Sequence record: OQ708376.1
Length of the DNA: 64,000 nucleotides
Source: Escherichia phage vB_EcoM_CRJP21
Reading direction: 5' to 3' (one strand)
In this document: positions 13,197 to 61,008 of the stretch, piece by piece
Position numbering within the stretch: position 1 is the stretch's first letter
Layout: each line of letters starts with the position of its first letter
The notes under the pieces: model-generated
Seen by the model: only the letters and a program-made list of their open reading frames with translations
Told to the model about the DNA's origin: nothing
Database searches by the model: none
Program-made: the position numbers and the translations under genes

Positions 13197-14621
13197 ATGT
13201 CAGATAACAAATCTACTTCAAGATTCAATGAAGTATCTCCGGCACTCCAGAAAGAATGTCAAGAACGTCTGGTTCTGGCTCGTACATCTTTGATGTTAAC
13301 TGCACCATTCTTTGGTGTACTCGCTTCACGTTTACGTCCAGTTCCTAATAATACATGGTGTCGTACTCTAGCAGTGGATGGTAAACATCTATTCTACAAC
13401 GTAGAATTTGTAATGGGCATTCAAGACCCATCTAAAAAGAAAGAATATGAAGAAGCTATTCGTGAAAAGCACCCTGAAGTTACAGACGAACAATTAAAAG
13501 AAATGACTGAAGGTTTGACTGATGAAAACCTTGTTGCTGTAATTTGTCATGAAATTCTACACTGTGCTTACGATCACTTCCTTCGTCGTGGTATGCGTGA
13601 TCCACAACGTTATAACCGTGCAGCGGATTATGCCATTAACCAAATCATCGTTCGTGAGAAAATTGGGAAAATCCAAAGTTCATGGTTGTATGATAAAAAA
13701 TATGAAGGCATGACCGCAGAAGAGATTTACATTCTTCTTGAAGAAGAAGAACAAAAAGAAGATGGTGAAGGTGAAGGTCAACCACAAAGTGGCGGCGGTG
13801 AAGGTGAAGGTAAAAATCGCGGTACTTTTGGCGATATTAAAGATGGTAAGGGTAAACCAAAAGGTACTACCATTGACCAGCATGACGTTCCACAAGAAGG
13901 TCAAGAGGGTGGTTCAAGTGAACAGCAAAAACGTGATTACATGGATGATTTCAAAACAGCAATGATGAATGCTGCTCGTGCAGGTGGTACACCAGCAGAA
14001 ATCGCTCGTATGATTAACAACTTTAAAGAACCAAAGATTGACTGGCGTTCAAAACTTCAACGTACACTTCGTAGTTGGTTGAAGTCTGATGCAACATATC
14101 AAAATCCGAATCGTCGTTCTTGGGGTGCAGGTTTTGGTTCTAATGGCTCATTCTATGGTAATCCAATTTACCCAGGGATGAAACCAGATGATGATATTGA
14201 TATTGCGATTGCACTAGATGCTTCTGGGTCTATTTCTGAAGATATGCTTCGTGATTTCATTAGTGAAGTTCTTGGCATCACTAAACAATTCAAACAGTTT
14301 AAGATTCGTATCATGACTTTTGATACTGAAGTTTATACTGTAAAGGATTACAAAACTGGCGAAGAACGTAAGATTCTGGAATATCCAGTAAAAGGTGGTG
14401 GTGGTACTGACTTTGAAGCAGTATGGGTTCATATGAAGAACGACAACTACAAGCCTAAACAGCTTGTAATGTTTACTGATGGTGAACCGTGGCAGTCATG
14501 GGGTGATCCAAACTACTGTAAAACACTGTTCGTGATTCACAGTAACCCAAATAAAGTTGCACCATTTGGTGAGACTGTACACTACGAATATGAAGCTGAT
14601 AAAAAGCGTCAACGTAGTTAA
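13197..14621 (+). CDS. VWA (MIDAS) domain protein with N-terminal HExxH putative metallopeptidase domain
   Basis: 474 aa; N-terminal HEILH (HExxH); G/E-rich low-complexity linker; C-terminal VWA with MIDAS residues DASGS ... GGGTD ... TDGEP. Confidence 0.7.
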   Translation: MSDNKSTSRFNEVSPALQKECQERLVLARTSLMLTAPFFGVLASRLRPVPNNTWCRTLAVDGKHLFYNVEFVMGIQDPSKKKEYEEAIREKHPEVTDEQLKEMTEGLTDENLVAVICHEILHCAYDHFLRRGMRDPQRYNRAADYAINQIIVREKIGKIQSSWLYDKKYEGMTAEEIYILLEEEEQKEDGEGEGQPQSGGGEGEGKNRGTFGDIKDGKGKPKGTTIDQHDVPQEGQEGGSSEQQKRDYMDDFKTAMMNAARAGGTPAEIARMINNFKEPKIDWRSKLQRTLRSWLKSDATYQNPNRRSWGAGFGSNGSFYGNPIYPGMKPDDDIDIAIALDASGSISEDMLRDFISEVLGITKQFKQFKIRIMTFDTEVYTVKDYKTGEERKILEYPVKGGGGTDFEAVWVHMKNDNYKPKQLVMFTDGEPWQSWGDPNYCKTLFVIHSNPNKVAPFGETVHYEYEADKKRQRS

Positions 14622-14633
14622 GTACTAAATAAT

Positions 14634-14664
14634 GAGAACGGAAAATTCCGTTCTCTTCTTTTAT
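14634..14664 (+). terminator. Rho-independent terminator after the VWA gene
   Basis: GAGAACGG-aaaatt-CCGTTCTC followed by a T-rich tract. Confidence 0.6.
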
Positions 14665-14668
14665 AAGT

Positions 14669-14696
14669 GGGACAACTTATAAAAATATGATATAAT
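14669..14696 (+). promoter_or_regulatory. Sigma70-type promoter (GGGACA-16-TGaTATAAT) for the unknown/SLOG/thyA operon
   Basis: -35-like GGGACA at 14669-14674, 16-nt spacer, TATAAT at 14691-14696 preceded by ATGA, as in P1/P2. Confidence 0.45.
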
Positions 14697-14730
14697 AGTT
14701 AATGTACCAATATACATGGAGAGTATTAAA

Positions 14731-14976
14731 ATGGAACAAGAAAATAATCAAATTCAACTAACCCTTCTAGACCTAATCAATGCTGCAAAAATCATGGAAG
14801 CTGCTGTTGCACGAAACACCTTTAAAGTTGAAGAACTTGTTGAGGTTGCTCCAGTTGTATCTAAATTTGTTTCTTTTGCAAATGTAGCTCTTGAAGATAT
14901 TAAAGCACAAGAAGATGCAGCTAAAGAAGAAGCTGAATCACAAGATAGTGAAACTCAAGAAGATAAAGGAGAATAA
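14731..14976 (+). CDS. Small acidic hypothetical protein
   Basis: 81 aa from the ATG at 14731, which has a GGAGAG RBS; the track start at 14716 lacks an RBS and lies only ~20 nt from the predicted -10. Confidence 0.4.
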   Translation: MEQENNQIQLTLLDLINAAKIMEAAVARNTFKVEELVEVAPVVSKFVSFANVALEDIKAQEDAAKEEAESQDSETQEDKGE

Positions 14977-14978
14977 TT

Positions 14979-15635
14979 ATGGCAGCTATTCGTCATGTTG
15001 GTGTAATGCGTAATACAGGTTCTCGTGTTTTTGTTGTTTGGCGTTCACTACCAGATGATCCTGAACACTGCCTTATCGTTTATCGTGATTCACTACCAGA
15101 AGCATATGTACACGCAGTAACTGATATTGTTATGGGTCATGGTCAATCTAATATTGATTTGTGGGAAGTAATGCATAAAATTGGTTATCTCGATGGACGC
15201 AAAATGCTAGATGTTCTACACAACATGCAGCATCTACGTCGCGTTCGTACTTGTGATATTGATATGCACACTGGTGGTAATAATAAAATTTCTCTTGATG
15301 TTCTAAACAAAGCATTAGATGAAAATCAAGCGAAAGTACAAGAAGATGGTAAAGTAAAAGACTTTAACCCATTCAATCCACAAGAAGCAGACACTAAAGT
15401 AGAAGAAGCTACTATTGTAGAACAACTTCTCACTGATGCACAAAAATATGAAAAACTGGCTAAAGAACATTATGAACGTGCATACAATTTAGAGCCAAGC
15501 TTGCGTCCGCAAACACAAGTTGTTGAACAACCGAAAGATAGTAAAACAATTTATCTAGAAATTCCAGAAGGTATTTCACAGACTAAAGCTATTGAGAAAG
15601 TAAAACAACTATTTGCAGAACGTAAAGCAAAATAA
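14979..15635 (+). CDS. Hypothetical protein
   Basis: 218 aa; starts 3 nt after the previous stop; no recognisable motif. Confidence 0.5.
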   Translation: MAAIRHVGVMRNTGSRVFVVWRSLPDDPEHCLIVYRDSLPEAYVHAVTDIVMGHGQSNIDLWEVMHKIGYLDGRKMLDVLHNMQHLRRVRTCDIDMHTGGNNKISLDVLNKALDENQAKVQEDGKVKDFNPFNPQEADTKVEEATIVEQLLTDAQKYEKLAKEHYERAYNLEPSLRPQTQVVEQPKDSKTIYLEIPEGISQTKAIEKVKQLFAERKAK

Positions 15636-15638
15636 AAT

Positions 15639-16232
15639 ATGAAAAAGAATGAATTAGATGAAGCAATTAAAGGTTTATCTAATGTATGTTTTAGTGGCGG
15701 GGCAGCAGGTGCTGACCGCCTTTTTTCTATCTATGCAAAAAATAATGGATTTGAAGTTATTAATTTTTCATTCAAAGGTCATGAGCATAGTGTAGATGAA
15801 AGTACTATATTAGAAATACCATCCAATATTCTATCTGATATTTCTATATTAAATCAACTAAACATTGCATGTTACTCGTTGCAGCGAAAAGTACCAAAAC
15901 CTGGTTCTTATGTTTACAACTTACTTGCAAGGAATAGTTATCAGATACTTAATACAGAAAGAATATATTGTATTGCAAATATCACATCACCAACTAAGGT
16001 AAGTGGTGGTACTGCATGGGCAGTACAGATGTATATGGATTCAGTTGAAAATCCTGAAATTTATTGTTATGATATGAATTCACGTTCAGTATTTTATTTC
16101 GATACAGTACTGAAAGAGTTCACACAAACATTCGTCGTTCCAGCACCACATGGTAACTGGACTGGTATTGGTTCACGCAATGCCACAGAAAAACATATGG
16201 AACATTTTATTACATTTTTCAAGGAAGAATAA
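15639..16232 (+). CDS. SLOG/DprA-like Rossmann-fold nucleotide-binding protein
   Basis: 197 aa; glycine-rich motif FSGGAAGADRLF plus second motif ARNSYQIL...VSGGTAWAVQM, matching the paired motifs of DprA/Smf/YpsA-type SLOG domains; TAATG overlap with thymidylate synthase. Confidence 0.4.
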   Translation: MKKNELDEAIKGLSNVCFSGGAAGADRLFSIYAKNNGFEVINFSFKGHEHSVDESTILEIPSNILSDISILNQLNIACYSLQRKVPKPGSYVYNLLARNSYQILNTERIYCIANITSPTKVSGGTAWAVQMYMDSVENPEIYCYDMNSRSVFYFDTVLKEFTQTFVVPAPHGNWTGIGSRNATEKHMEHFITFFKEE

Positions 16233-17161
16233 TGAAACAACTACAAGAACTATATCAAAAAATTCTAGATGAAGGCGTAGAAAGCGTTGACCGTACTGGT
16301 GTTGGAACAATCAAACTTATCGGTCAACAAATGCGTTTTGACCTTAAAGATGGTTTCCCAGCAGTGACGACAAAACGTCTAGCTTGGAAAGCAATGACTT
16401 CAGAATTACTATGGTTTATTGAAGGTTCCCATGATGAGCGTCGCCTTTGTGAAATTTTGCATGGAACTCGTGATACAGAAAAGAAAACTATTTGGACAGA
16501 TAATTACCTAAATCAAGGCGTTGCTCTTGGTTATACTGATGGTGAGTTAGGTCCAGTGTATGGTAAGCAATGGCGTGAATGGGAAGATTATAAATTTAGT
16601 TCCAGTACTGAAGAAATTCAAGAATTAAAAGATAAAGGATACAAAGTTATCGATTATACTGGTTCACATGGTGTTGTTATGAAACGTACAACTGACCAAT
16701 TACAGGAACTAATCAATGGTATAAATTCCGATCCATATGGTCGTCGCCATATTCTAAGTGCATGGAACGTTGGTGAGCTTGATGATATGACGTTGCCACC
16801 TTGTCATAGCTTTGTACAATTTTGTGTAGTACAAGGGAAACTAAGCTGCATTCTACATCAAAGATCCGCTGATCTATTTTTGGGAGTTCCATTTAATATC
16901 AGTAGTTATTCACTACTAACTCATATGATTGCACAAATTACGGGTTTAGATGTTGGTGAATTTATTTGGAATGGTGGTGATTGCCACATTTATAAAAACC
17001 ACGTTGAACAAGTAAAAGAACAACTACAGAGAAAACCTCGTGAATTACCTGAATTATGGCTTGATCCTACAATTACTAATATTGAAGATTTCACAATGGA
17101 TTCTTTCAAATTAGTGAATTACAATCCAATGCCAACAATTAAAGCACCGATGGCTGTATAA
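16232..17161 (+). CDS. thyA: Thymidylate synthase (ThyA/Td family)
   Basis: 309 aa; DRTGVGT; catalytic-Cys motif LPPCHSF; HQRSADLFLGVPFNISSYSLLTHMIAQ parallels E. coli [27 protein letters not shown]; C-terminal ...PMAV. Confidence 0.85.
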   Translation: MKQLQELYQKILDEGVESVDRTGVGTIKLIGQQMRFDLKDGFPAVTTKRLAWKAMTSELLWFIEGSHDERRLCEILHGTRDTEKKTIWTDNYLNQGVALGYTDGELGPVYGKQWREWEDYKFSSSTEEIQELKDKGYKVIDYTGSHGVVMKRTTDQLQELINGINSDPYGRRHILSAWNVGELDDMTLPPCHSFVQFCVVQGKLSCILHQRSADLFLGVPFNISSYSLLTHMIAQITGLDVGEFIWNGGDCHIYKNHVEQVKEQLQRKPRELPELWLDPTITNIEDFTMDSFKLVNYNPMPTIKAPMAV

Positions 17162-17162
17162 A

Positions 17163-17195
17163 AGAAAAGGGAGAACTGACGTTCTCCCTTTTTTA
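17163..17195. terminator. Bidirectional rho-independent terminator between convergent thyA and fibre genes
   Basis: A-tract, GGGAGAAC-tgac-GTTCTCCC, T-tract. Confidence 0.65.
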
Positions 17196-19160
17196 TTATC
17201 TAATTGTTACCAATGTTCTTCCGTCGAAACGTACATCAGGTGTTGAAGGTATACTGAACACTACGTTAGTGCCGTTAAACGTCACGCTATCGACCTCAAC
17301 ACGAGTATAGACACCAGAACTAACCTGTTCCTGTATCTCTGCTGTGACGATGTTTGAGGCTGTTACAGTAAGGGTGTAGTAGTTACCACTTAAGACCCAA
17401 GATGAAATGGTAAAAGCATCGGTTCTCACTGAACCTGAACCAATTGGAACCCATTGACCTTGAACTTTTTGCATTGAAGTACGCTCGGTATTGGAGTATG
17501 CAATCATACCATCAACGCCAACAGAGTTATCAATAGTAGCTAGTACAGGTAATTGGATACCATATCTATTAAAACGTGTTCTTATAGTTCCATTATCATA
17601 GATACTTACATCAGCATAATTACCCATTGATAGTTTTAAATCAGAACTAACTAATTGGATTGTACTTTGATTAGTAGCACTTTCTAATGTAATTATACCA
17701 TTAGCTAATAGATTTATATTTTTAAATTTATTAGTTGTTCCATTAAAATTAGTATTAGCTGTAAAAGTACTAACACCATTAACTGTAATGGTATCTGATG
17801 CAGCATCACCTAATGTGGTATTACCTTGAATGTTCAAATTACCACTAGCAGTTATATTACTAGCTGATGTATCCCCAGTTAATGTACTTGTACCATCAAC
17901 AACAATATTACCATGAAACGCACTTTCGCCATTTTTAAATTCAACTTGAACTTTATTCATTGAACTAAATGAAATAATATTACTACTAGCACTTAATCCC
18001 ACATTAGTATTAGTTGCATTATCAAATCTTAGTACTGGCGTTGATGCAGGTGTTGATGTTGATTGATATAATGTTAGTGTTGAATTATTAATTCGAACAC
18101 GTTCTGTACCAGCAGTACTGAACCCAATTGCGTCATCGGCTGGATGAAATATACCAGTATTAGCATCTGACCACTTAGTTGGGTCATTACCTGGGTTATT
18201 CGTTGGGTCAAACGGATTATTGTTAAATGTCAATGCTGGTGCTGCTGCACTTCCATACACCACCCCAAAACGCCCAGAGCCGTCTGTTCCATCATTATAC
18301 ATGGAATCACCAGTTCTACGTAAACACTCAATCACAACGTTATCTATGGATGTTTGAACGGTCCCTGCGTTTGTCCTAAATTGACGATGATTTGCAATCA
18401 TTACAGTATTGTCATATAATACTGAAGCAGCGGAAATGCTTGTTCTTGACTGGCGTAGACGTATGTTTTTATCTTCAGTTATAATAATCCAATCACCATC
18501 TGATAGTGCGGTTTGGTTCATTGGAACACCTGAAGCAAATGGTTTGGTTAAGTCAGCATCTGTTGCTAAATTTTTAAGACCATCATGACCAGTACTCGGA
18601 ATAGATGCAGGAATAATTCTAGCGAAAGCGTATGTTACTAGTTTAGCACCAGATATATTTGGATTAGAGTCAACATAATATAAAATTTCAATCCAATTAC
18701 CTTGTCCAGTTGGATTTGTAGGAGTAAATGTAACAGGACTTGTTTGTGGATTATTTGCTTCATAATGGGCTTGTGCGGCATCCATAATACCACGAACAAC
18801 ATAATAATCACCATTTAGTGATGCTGCTGGTGCTGGTAGTGGAGTTTGTGCTAAAGGTGGATCAATATCATCTGGAATAGGATTATATGTACCAACAAAT
18901 TGTAAACCACTAGTTACTGAATCTGGTAATTGGGAAGTAAGAAGTTTACCATTTGCATCTAAGTTTGCAAAACGGCGATATGCCATAGTACCATCTTCAA
19001 AATCCAGAACACCTTCAAACGATTTCCATTCCTTATTGTATCTAATCATCCCTGATCTTATTACATCAGCGGTTTCTTTTGATGGTGCTTTCGGTAACTC
19101 TAAAAAAGATTTACTATCGATAATTACACCACCATCACCTCTAATTCGATTTATACTCAT
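17196..19160 (-). CDS. Tail fibre-like protein
   Basis: 654 aa; GAGGAA RBS; Ser/Thr/Asn/Gly-rich beta-structure-like composition (NxT/S-rich stretches); located in the fibre cluster. Confidence 0.5.
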   Translation of the reverse strand: MSINRIRGDGGVIIDSKSFLELPKAPSKETADVIRSGMIRYNKEWKSFEGVLDFEDGTMAYRRFANLDANGKLLTSQLPDSVTSGLQFVGTYNPIPDDIDPPLAQTPLPAPAASLNGDYYVVRGIMDAAQAHYEANNPQTSPVTFTPTNPTGQGNWIEILYYVDSNPNISGAKLVTYAFARIIPASIPSTGHDGLKNLATDADLTKPFASGVPMNQTALSDGDWIIITEDKNIRLRQSRTSISAASVLYDNTVMIANHRQFRTNAGTVQTSIDNVVIECLRRTGDSMYNDGTDGSGRFGVVYGSAAAPALTFNNNPFDPTNNPGNDPTKWSDANTGIFHPADDAIGFSTAGTERVRINNSTLTLYQSTSTPASTPVLRFDNATNTNVGLSASSNIISFSSMNKVQVEFKNGESAFHGNIVVDGTSTLTGDTSASNITASGNLNIQGNTTLGDAASDTITVNGVSTFTANTNFNGTTNKFKNINLLANGIITLESATNQSTIQLVSSDLKLSMGNYADVSIYDNGTIRTRFNRYGIQLPVLATIDNSVGVDGMIAYSNTERTSMQKVQGQWVPIGSGSVRTDAFTISSWVLSGNYYTLTVTASNIVTAEIQEQVSSGVYTRVEVDSVTFNGTNVVFSIPSTPDVRFDGRTLVTIR

Positions 19161-37949: not shown

Positions 37950-37977
37950 TAGACAAACCGTAAGAATGTGATATAAT
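37950..37977 (+). promoter_or_regulatory. Sigma70-type promoter (TAGACA-16-TGaTATAAT) for the ClpA-like gene
   Basis: -35-like TAGACA at 37950-37955, 16-nt spacer, TATAAT at 37972-37977 preceded by AATGTGA; same extended -10 core as P1/P2. Confidence 0.45.
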
Positions 37978-60920: not shown

Positions 60921-61008
60921 CGTGGGACAAACTGCTTTTTGGTGCTATAATAACATTGATGGTACAAGGATTGTACCTATTGGATTTAAACATGGAGAGT
61001 AAAATACA

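Follow-up and report, generated by a model that had tools for sequence, protein, structure and literature searches.

Why should a jumbo phage keep a gene that RefSeq calls a "DprA-like DNA recombination-mediator protein" directly in front of its thymidylate synthase gene? The question is raised by a compact cassette of four genes in Escherichia phage vB_EcoM_CRJP21 (OQ708376.1), of which a stretch of 64,000 nucleotides, hereafter the window, was analysed. We found that the cassette is common to four genera of Rak2-like jumbo phages, and that its third gene encodes a protein of SLOG fold whose viral relatives lie recurrently beside enzymes that use deoxynucleoside monophosphates (dNMPs). The fourth gene is by its sequence a canonical thymidylate synthase. 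A role in the binding or processing of nucleoside monophosphates is the explanation of the SLOG protein to which we tentatively incline, and it is weighed below against three others.

A conserved four-gene cassette

A reading made from the letters of the window without database searches (the sequence-only reading) had described four tightly packed open reading frames (ORFs), the last two joined by a TAATG overlap. All four were found where it had placed them:

14731-14976, + strand: ORF1, an acidic protein of 81 residues (ORF list; phrog_13789, E 1e-35)
14979-15635, + strand: ORF2, 218 residues, restricted to Rak2-like jumbo phages
15639-16232, + strand: ORF3, a single-domain SLOG-fold protein of 197 residues, PBECO4 gp006 (fold model, motifs), hereafter the SLOG protein
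16232-17161, + strand: thyA/td, 309 residues, by sequence a canonical thymidylate synthase, ThyA (Pfam, NCBIfam, alignment to the Escherichia coli enzyme)

The gaps between consecutive ORFs are 2, 3 and -1 nucleotides, and in the final junction, TAATG, the ATG of thyA overlaps the stop codon of ORF3. Positions 14600-17200 are 99.9% identical to Escherichia phage PBECO4 (NC_027364, 5934-8534, reverse strand), where RefSeq lists gp008 and gp007 as hypothetical, gp006 under the DprA-like name quoted above, and gp005 as thymidylate synthase. About 20 further jumbo phages of Asteriusvirus, among them 121Q, slurp01, Sharanji, phAPEC6 and G17, share 98.5-99.8% identity with the window over these positions. 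The cassette is also syntenic in Alcyoneusvirus, Mimasvirus and Eneladusvirus, its layout being common to four Rak2-like genera. Over these four genera the order ORF1-ORF2-SLOG-ThyA is kept together with a promoter and a terminator, while the identity of the SLOG protein falls to about 50%. A PHROG family was found for each of the four ORFs, and because of these families, the high identity across Asteriusvirus and the synteny in further genera, we consider all of them to be real genes and not chance ORFs. Judged by its sequence, the cassette forms one transcription unit, conserved among Rak2-like jumbo phages and placed under a predicted host-type sigma-70-like promoter. The earlier view of a compact cassette with a promoter of its own was thus borne out; terminators flank it on both sides, and the architecture is the one kept in the four genera.

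A single-domain protein of SLOG fold

An AlphaFold2 model of the SLOG protein, built from an alignment of 63 sequences, was obtained with a predicted local distance difference test score (pLDDT) of 96.8 and a predicted template modelling score of 0.92. It shows a three-layer alpha/beta Rossmannoid fold, and its closest structural relatives are SLOG members. The closest match, which is collinear, is PDB entry 3IMK, a "putative molybdenum carrier protein" from Syntrophus aciditrophicus that we take as the structural representative of the cpYpsA type (PF12694); DprA and LOG enzymes follow far behind. Searches of PDB sequences with the single SLOG protein and with profiles of 63 and 137 members gave no meaningful chain, 3IMK included, and a fused relative (P0285) matched no PDB chain. 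The family thus has no solved member, and its tie to known structures is at the level of the fold.

The sequence-only reading had recognised a SLOG-type protein by its paired glycine-rich motifs, GGAAGAD (residues 20-26) and SGGTAWA (122-128). Both stand and the modelled fold agrees with them; a third conserved motif, GIGSR (176-180), had been overlooked. The full set comprises SGGAAGAD at residues 19-26, R98-N99-x-x-Q102, SGGTAWA and GIGSR. Among 137 diverse members G20, D26, R98, G124, T125 and G178 are invariant, and conservation reaches 90% or more at S19, G21, A22, G24, N99, Q102, W127, A128, G176, I177 and R180. The family consensus consists of three glycine-rich loops (SGGAxGxD, GGTxWA and GIG[ST]R) and an R-N-x-x-Q helix. 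Canonically, the G[ST]R-type loop of DprA and LOG proteins stands first. Its place as the last loop of the SLOG protein fits a circularly permuted (cpYpsA) arrangement, as does the collinear match to 3IMK.

Comparison with profiles of named families gave a match below threshold to YAcAr, a SLOG family, and none to the DprA or LOG models. The YAcAr match (PF10686), the only one in Pfam, scores 20.2 bits against a gathering score of 28.2 and spans residues 6-44 of the protein and 21-60 of the 66 profile positions, which is the SGGAxGAD loop with its helix; 15 of 63 family members match the same profile. Some GenBank records name the orthologue "DUF2493 domain-containing protein". The likeness to YAcAr covers one loop region, and the strand-GSR element that starts YAcAr sits C-terminally in the window protein. 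To cpYpsA itself the SLOG protein has no match at E ≤1 in the Pfam scan; only two fused relatives match it, at 19.5 and 17.4 bits against a threshold of 26.2. The R-N-x-x-Q helix and a beta-meander (residues 141-164) belong to the SLOG family of the window and not to cpYpsA. The Lysine_decarbox model of the LOG/PpnN nucleotide 5'-monophosphate nucleosidases gave no Pfam match either. These enzymes have PGGxGTxxE with a catalytic Glu, whereas the window protein reads SGGTAWAVQ and the Glu is absent. By motif registration, Gln130 presumably occupies the position of the catalytic Glu, and it is not conserved across the family. This replacement makes a LOG-type hydrolase or N-glycosidase mechanism doubtful.

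The family is large. A search of 5.8 billion proteins returned 106 relatives, none of which carried a precomputed Pfam domain. When a profile was run against 1.84 billion cluster representatives, 2,804 clusters matched at E ≤0.001 and 1,966 at E ≤1e-10, the roughly 2,800 SLOG-family clusters being clusters at 50% identity. They are mostly stand-alone proteins of 175-210 residues, and the family is almost entirely viral.

Some records do not show the gene intact. In phAPEC6 (MK817115; locus L096, 2520-3094) an intact ORF of 197 residues is annotated as two short ORFs, gp261c and gp260c, and in phage K64-1 (AB897757, 37169-37756) the ORF was left unannotated. A tblastn search found a full-length open frame in both records, with an identity of 100% for phAPEC6 and of 62% for K64-1. 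The SLOG proteins of the Atu_ph07/Phosso type (P0084, P0088, P0093 and P0096; locus L012, 3483-4397) have a conserved C-terminal extension of about 100 residues, with the motif DIIYVP...PGKG.LNR.GGWATVRR, for which no Pfam match was found.

The thymidylate synthase is canonical in sequence

The fourth gene had been assigned to the ThyA family, and this is confirmed by its scores of 338.5 bits with Pfam PF00303 (Thymidylat_synt; threshold 24.3), 340.8 bits with the NCBIfam equivalog NF002497 (cut-off 327) and 325 bits with TIGR03284 (cut-off 108). Alignment to structures indicates that the protein retains the following residues of the E. coli thymidylate synthase (TS), in E. coli numbering: Arg21, Glu58, Trp80, Tyr94, Arg126, Arg127, Cys146-His147, Gln165-Arg166-Ser167, Asp169, Asn177, His207, Tyr209 and the C-terminal KAPxA tail. 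Among them are the catalytic Cys of the PCH stretch and the phosphate-binding Arg residues. Position 177, which specifies deoxyuridine monophosphate (dUMP), has Asn and not Asp. Stretches conserved with the E. coli enzyme are DRTG, ELLWF, GPVYGKQWR, GRRHILSAWN, PPCH, QRSADLFLGVPFN, GGDCHIY and KAPMAV. The greater length of the phage protein is due to two insertions relative to E. coli TS: about 33 residues at 119-151, to which nothing in the E. coli enzyme corresponds, and a smaller number near residues 66-103. We conclude from these sequence features that the protein is a canonical TS.

The sequence-only reading had raised the possibility of a dUMP hydroxymethylase. We see no support for this and rejected it, as the protein passes the equivalog cut-off for TS, as none of the catalytic and folate-closing residues of the E. 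coli enzyme has been lost, and as the DNA of the related phage RaK2 shows restriction resistance of the methylation type only (PMC3622015). The precursor gene set of RaK2 is T4-like, with no hydroxymethylase or glucosyltransferase genes, and dUTPase and dCTPase are also lacking (PMC3622015). The cassette shows no sign of thymidine hypermodification. Like T4 Td, ThyA is by all the catalytic residues checked a bona fide TS, and Rak2-like phages share with T4 the precursor genes tk, dNMP kinase, td, cd, frd, nrdAB and nrdDG. T4 differs in that a search of the phage collection gave no T4 match to the SLOG protein; a further difference is the insertion of about 33 residues at 119-151 of the ThyA in the window.

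Recurrent neighbours of SLOG genes

To compare gene neighbourhoods, 79 viral loci with a SLOG relative were taken, their ORFs were called, the neighbours clustered and the recurrent clusters annotated. All 14 Rak2-like loci have, in this order, an N4 gp24-like ATPase, an N4 gp25-like protein, ORF1, ORF2, SLOG and ThyA. Most of them have in addition an ORF of about 100 residues before the SLOG gene and one of about 115 residues between SLOG and ThyA. Both are present in GAP32, Serratia phage BF, CBB and most metagenomic Rak2-like loci; RaK2 is without the longer one, and both are missing in Asteriusvirus only. PBECO4-like phages have lost the two small ORFs flanking SLOG. Since Asteriusvirus alone is without both, the TAATG coupling is a local feature and does not extend to most Rak2-like relatives, which have an ORF in between. 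In the loci of RaK2, GAP32 and BF (L008-L010) the small ORFs lie within about 3206-3514 and 4095-4448; the first overlaps the SLOG start, and the second is acidic and coiled-coil-like.

Outside the Rak2-like lineage, ThyA is a neighbour in 0 of 57 viral loci. The recurrent partner there is a T4 gp1-type dNMP kinase (DNMK; identified by Pfam PF21448, 53.6 bits against 27.1), which lies directly upstream of SLOG in 32 of the 57 loci, typically with an overlap of 4 nucleotides, and within four genes of it in 40. The pairing recurs amid at least five differing sets of flanks, and when the SLOG proteins are grouped at 60% identity, 11 of the 28 clusters show it; it was also seen in 0.5-Mb megaphage contigs, Agrobacterium phage Atu_ph07 and Sinorhizobium phage Phosso. 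A link to nucleotide metabolism, suspected from the cassette, is thus strengthened by a translational coupling in other phage lineages. Further nucleotide-metabolism neighbours of SLOG relatives are dCMP deaminase, an NMNAT-Nudix protein, NAMPT and NUDIX, and an NAD synthetase gene stands near some loci. When same-strand neighbours were annotated in 15 loci of unique context, no further recurrent partner appeared.

A possible role in the deoxynucleotide precursor pool

How could the SLOG protein and these enzymes work together? ThyA would make deoxythymidine monophosphate from dUMP by the ordinary TS reaction. The three glycine-rich loops and the Arg-Asn-x-x-Gln helix of the SLOG protein may line a pocket that accepts a phosphorylated (deoxy)ribose, in which the protein could bind, and possibly process, a (deoxy)nucleoside 5'-monophosphate or a related phosphoribosyl compound. 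It would then act on the pool of DNA precursors beside enzymes that handle dNMPs, ThyA in this cassette and DNMK elsewhere, either as a pool-editing enzyme or as a regulatory or channelling partner that might physically contact ThyA or the kinase. We prefer a dNMP role because SLOG genes show two independent associations with enzymes that use deoxynucleoside monophosphates. The conserved motifs, the further nucleotide-metabolism neighbours, the fusion of a relative to a histidine-phosphatase domain (see below), the canonical nature of ThyA, the arrangement of promoter, terminator and Shine-Dalgarno sequence kept in four genera and an acidic isoelectric point (pI) were also counted in its favour; with a pI of 5.75, a small-molecule ligand fits the SLOG protein better than DNA does. 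Taken together, a role in which the protein binds or processes nucleoside monophosphates in connection with ThyA and the dNMP kinase seems to us a real possibility, somewhat short of probable.

Several observations weigh against it. A single viral lineage accounts for every case of ThyA adjacency, which could therefore be inherited synteny, and the direct TAATG junction between SLOG and ThyA occurs in Asteriusvirus only. The coupling to DNMK is absent in PBECO4, whose own dNMP kinase is about 15.4 kb away; in PBECO4-like phages it lies upstream of SLOG, and positions 1 to about 215 of the window (+ strand) hold its C-terminal end, which over 55 residues is 45% identical to the kinase of Atu_ph07. 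DNMK-SLOG pairs often stand in a structural region of T4-like type (gp13, sheath) that is itself syntenic, and their conservation is to that extent a matter of ancestry. The presumed place of Gln130 at the LOG catalytic-Glu position would argue against an N-glycosidase of LOG type. Finally, SLOG relatives have other contexts: beside gp46/47 in Cr30, with WYL and topA in Flavobacteriaceae, fused to NADAR, and within giant proteins presumably ejected from the virion. The 8 kb upstream of the cassette, for their part, are annotated mostly as virion structural genes.

The adjacency of SLOG and ThyA could also be functionally meaningless, if unrelated genes specific to this lineage merely share one promoter and the TAATG junction arose from ORF loss in Asteriusvirus. 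The two small ORFs that flank SLOG in most Rak2-like loci and are absent in PBECO4 agree with this, as do the restriction of the ThyA neighbour to the Rak2-like lineage and the lineage-restricted nature of ORF1 and ORF2. It is harder to reconcile with a gene order, promoter and terminator kept over four genera despite the divergence of the SLOG protein, and the independent, recurrent coupling to another dNMP enzyme makes an accidental link to dNMPs less likely. We regard a meaningless adjacency as unlikely, though worth keeping in view.

Is the SLOG protein a DprA-like recombination mediator?

The RefSeq name, which originates from the PHROG family holding the SLOG protein (phrog_768), implies quite another role. 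As a DprA-like mediator the protein would bind single-stranded DNA (ssDNA) and help to load a phage or host recombinase, in place of a missing UvsY. Its GSR and SGxAxGxD motifs form a pair in the style of DprA, and in Caulobacter phage Cr30 the SLOG gene follows directly after the gp46/gp47 recombination nuclease genes. Chromosomal relatives point the same way. Scanning bacterial genomes with the profile of 63 sequences, we found 13 loci with the SLOG family; of 11 in Flavobacteriaceae, 10 have SLOG paired with a WYL-WCX regulator and 9 also have topA. Sensing of ssDNA is a property of WYL regulators such as PafBC and DriD, and the adjacency of dprA and topA, common in bacteria, is brought to mind by the loci of Flavobacterium, Myroides and Paenimyroides. 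This SLOG-WYL-topA context may reveal the ancestral role of the family. In these three genera the homologues (L097-L107; for instance L100, 4986-9129, from Flavobacterium sp. xlx-214) adjoin miaB, and a Capnocytophaga homologue stands alone. From the literature, the authors of the RaK2 study found no UvsY (PMC3622015), and a DprA/SLOG protein has been proposed as an additional ssDNA binder of jumbo phages (Iyer et al., 2021; PMC7824862).

The protein itself speaks against this role. It has no match to the DprA model DNA_processg_A (PF02481) at E ≤1; 2 of 63 relatives match at E ≥0.006, under threshold, and two fused relatives reach 26.0 and 20.2 bits against a gathering score of 29.6. In structure, DprA is no closer to it than the LOG enzymes, both standing far behind 3IMK. 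ShosA, which the ShosTA paper describes as a genuine DprA-like protein binding ssDNA and RecA, is likewise no closer to the family than LOG enzymes. DprA/Smf has SAM and winged-helix domains, whereas the window protein is a single domain with neither. It is also acidic, and with pI values of 4.8-10.1 the family has no uniform basic character. The loop order apparently differs from that of DprA by permutation, and the conserved neighbourhood of the gene is dominated by enzymes of dNMPs, not by recombination, recA or competence genes. We therefore consider recombination mediation improbable. Databases mislabel the SLOG family as DprA-like, and no test made here supports that name.

Fusions, virion proteins and a possible part in counter-defence

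Some SLOG domains are parts of much larger proteins. Klebsiella phage Pylas (N4-like, NC_049444; locus L014, 6001-6492) has one at about residues 981-1144 of a protein of 3,819 residues that is annotated as the virion RNA polymerase. In the crAss-like cr113_1 and cr130_1 (L013 and L016; 3501-3989) the domain lies near the C-terminal part of proteins of 4,300-5,800 residues. According to their annotation, or by presumption, these giant proteins are packaged in the virion and ejected into the host. Among metagenomic proteins, one of 2,942 residues has a SLOG domain followed by a NADAR domain, and in another fusion a histidine-phosphatase domain precedes SLOG.

Such proteins invite the idea that the SLOG protein deals with nicotinamide adenine dinucleotide (NAD+) or ADP-ribose, or counters host defence, by binding, making or destroying an ADP-ribose-derived or other nucleotide signal at a very early stage of infection. 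It might, for instance, be a sponge in imitation of the SLOG sensor of Thoeris ThsA; a nucleotide-signal sponge had also been suggested by the sequence-only reading. Besides the domains in presumably ejected proteins of Pylas and crAss-like phages and the SLOG-NADAR fusion, the NUDIX, NMNAT-Nudix, NAMPT or NAD synthetase genes near several loci favour it, and the sigma-70-type promoter of the cassette is compatible with early expression. Iyer et al. (2021; PMC7824862) likewise placed YAcAr-family SLOG domains of jumbo phages among the predicted NAD+-utilising domains. These NAD-related neighbours are sporadic, however, in comparison with DNMK and ThyA, and since giant polyvalent proteins are mosaic, a fusion is weak evidence for a common pathway. 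PADLOC, searched at E ≤0.1, gave no match for ORF1, ORF2, ORF3 or the gene upstream, and hence no defence-associated SLOG match; domains of the ThsA type are absent from the top structural matches of the SLOG model. Unlike variable anti-defence loci, moreover, the SLOG protein is conserved at a fixed syntenic position and is 100% identical across many Asteriusvirus isolates. A part in NAD+ signalling or counter-defence strikes us as just as improbable as recombination mediation. A link to the NARP3 pathway was rejected, as NARP3 involves no SLOG protein.

Ejected proteins also suggest a more ambitious version of the dNMP role, to which we give little credence: the apparently permuted SLOG family would be an unrecognised component of phage deoxynucleotide metabolism that binds or edits a dNMP such as dUMP, works with TS or the gp1-type dNMP kinase and is sometimes delivered by the virion. 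N4-like and crAss-like phages might deliver it as a domain of an ejected giant protein, and in particles of Asteriusvirus it might perhaps travel with ThyA. If this were true, SLOG would act on the nucleotide pool of the host from the first moments of infection. Old and disputed reports are said to have placed Td and Frd in T4 baseplates, and the phAPEC6 virion data recall them. In purified particles of phAPEC6, the thymidylate synthase (gp259c) was detected by 3 peptides, the ORF2 homologue (gp262c) by 1 and the upstream ATPase (gp265c) by 6 (PMC7247149). Coming from a single study, this is a weak indication that ThyA and the ORF2 homologue are associated with the virion. The SLOG protein itself was undetectable in that proteome because its ORF is split in the annotation.

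Neither the gene nor the occurrence of SLOG domains in jumbo phages is new, the former being annotated in RefSeq and the latter known from earlier work. What the comparison adds is a large and mostly viral family, captured by no Pfam model, as a testable candidate for a step in the nucleotide-pool management of large phages; it is such a candidate because its genes are coupled time and again to those of two different dNMP-handling enzymes, and because its domain is found within giant proteins that are presumably ejected.

Promoter, terminators and the remaining genes

Three predicted signals delimit the cassette:

14634-14655, + strand: upstream intrinsic terminator hairpin, 9-bp stem followed by a T-run (terminator scan)
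14669-14696, + strand: predicted sigma-70-like promoter (promoter scan, 10 of 12 matches, with TG)
17165-17192, no single strand: bidirectional intrinsic terminator, 12-bp stem, AAAAGGGAGAAC...GTTCTCCCTTTT, T-runs on both strands (terminator scan)

The first hairpin and its T-run have counterparts at the matching position in the aligned sequences of RaK2, GAP32 and Serratia phage BF, and are predicted to end the upstream pair of N4 gp24/gp25-like genes and insulate the cassette. The promoter consists of a -35-like GGGACA (14669-14674), a spacer of 16 nucleotides and TATAAT (14691-14696), which is part of an extended -10 element, TGATATAAT (14688-14696). An exact GGGACA-N15-17-TATAAT occurs twice in the window against 0.06 occurrences expected. 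The alignment shows the extended -10 element at the same position in the four genera, as well as the succession of terminator, extended -10 promoter, Shine-Dalgarno sequence and ATG. The -35 region of GAP32 and BF reads TGAAACG or TGAAACA. Buttimer et al. described this as a "divergent RpoD-like" motif ahead of DNA-synthesis genes in CBB and GAP32 (PMC5259590). Further intergenic-looking TGnTATAAT sites resembling the cassette promoter, with TTGACA, TAGACA or GGGACA as -35 element, lie at 11619-11627, 37969-37977 and 60924-60951 (TGnTATAAT at 60943). These are probably the shared motif that the sequence-only reading had in mind when it called the cassette early; from the sigma-70-like promoter, early expression may be presumed. 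The terminator at 17165-17192 also serves a convergent structural gene of 654 residues (17196-19160, minus strand).

For ORF1, RefSeq and the ORF list give an alternative start at 14716 (86 residues). A conserved GGAG Shine-Dalgarno sequence at 14718-14721 precedes the ATG at 14731, and because both the GGAG and this downstream ATG are conserved in RaK2, GAP32 and Serratia phage BF, we favour the start that yields 81 residues, as in the sequence-only reading. The ORF1 protein has a pI of 4.2 and a net charge of -12.5; its PHROG carries no functional label, and NCBIfam gave only a match far below threshold. Neither ORF2 nor ORF3 has an NCBIfam match. ORF2 occurs only in Rak2-like phages, and its model (pLDDT 79.8) has an N-terminal SH3/KOW-like barrel followed by long helices, for which structure comparison returned no informative match. 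We propose that ORF1 and ORF2 are lineage-specific passengers or partners.

The gene immediately upstream of the cassette (13197-14621, + strand, 474 residues) is a "HNH endonuclease" in RefSeq and an N4 gp25-like or DUF2201 protein in other records. Within its sequence HEILHCAYDH conforms to the HExxH motif of metallopeptidases and DASGS to the MIDAS motif of vWA domains, and together with the MoxR-like, N4 gp24-like ATPase upstream it forms an ATPase-vWA pair. In view of these motifs and this pairing, the HNH label looks wrong.

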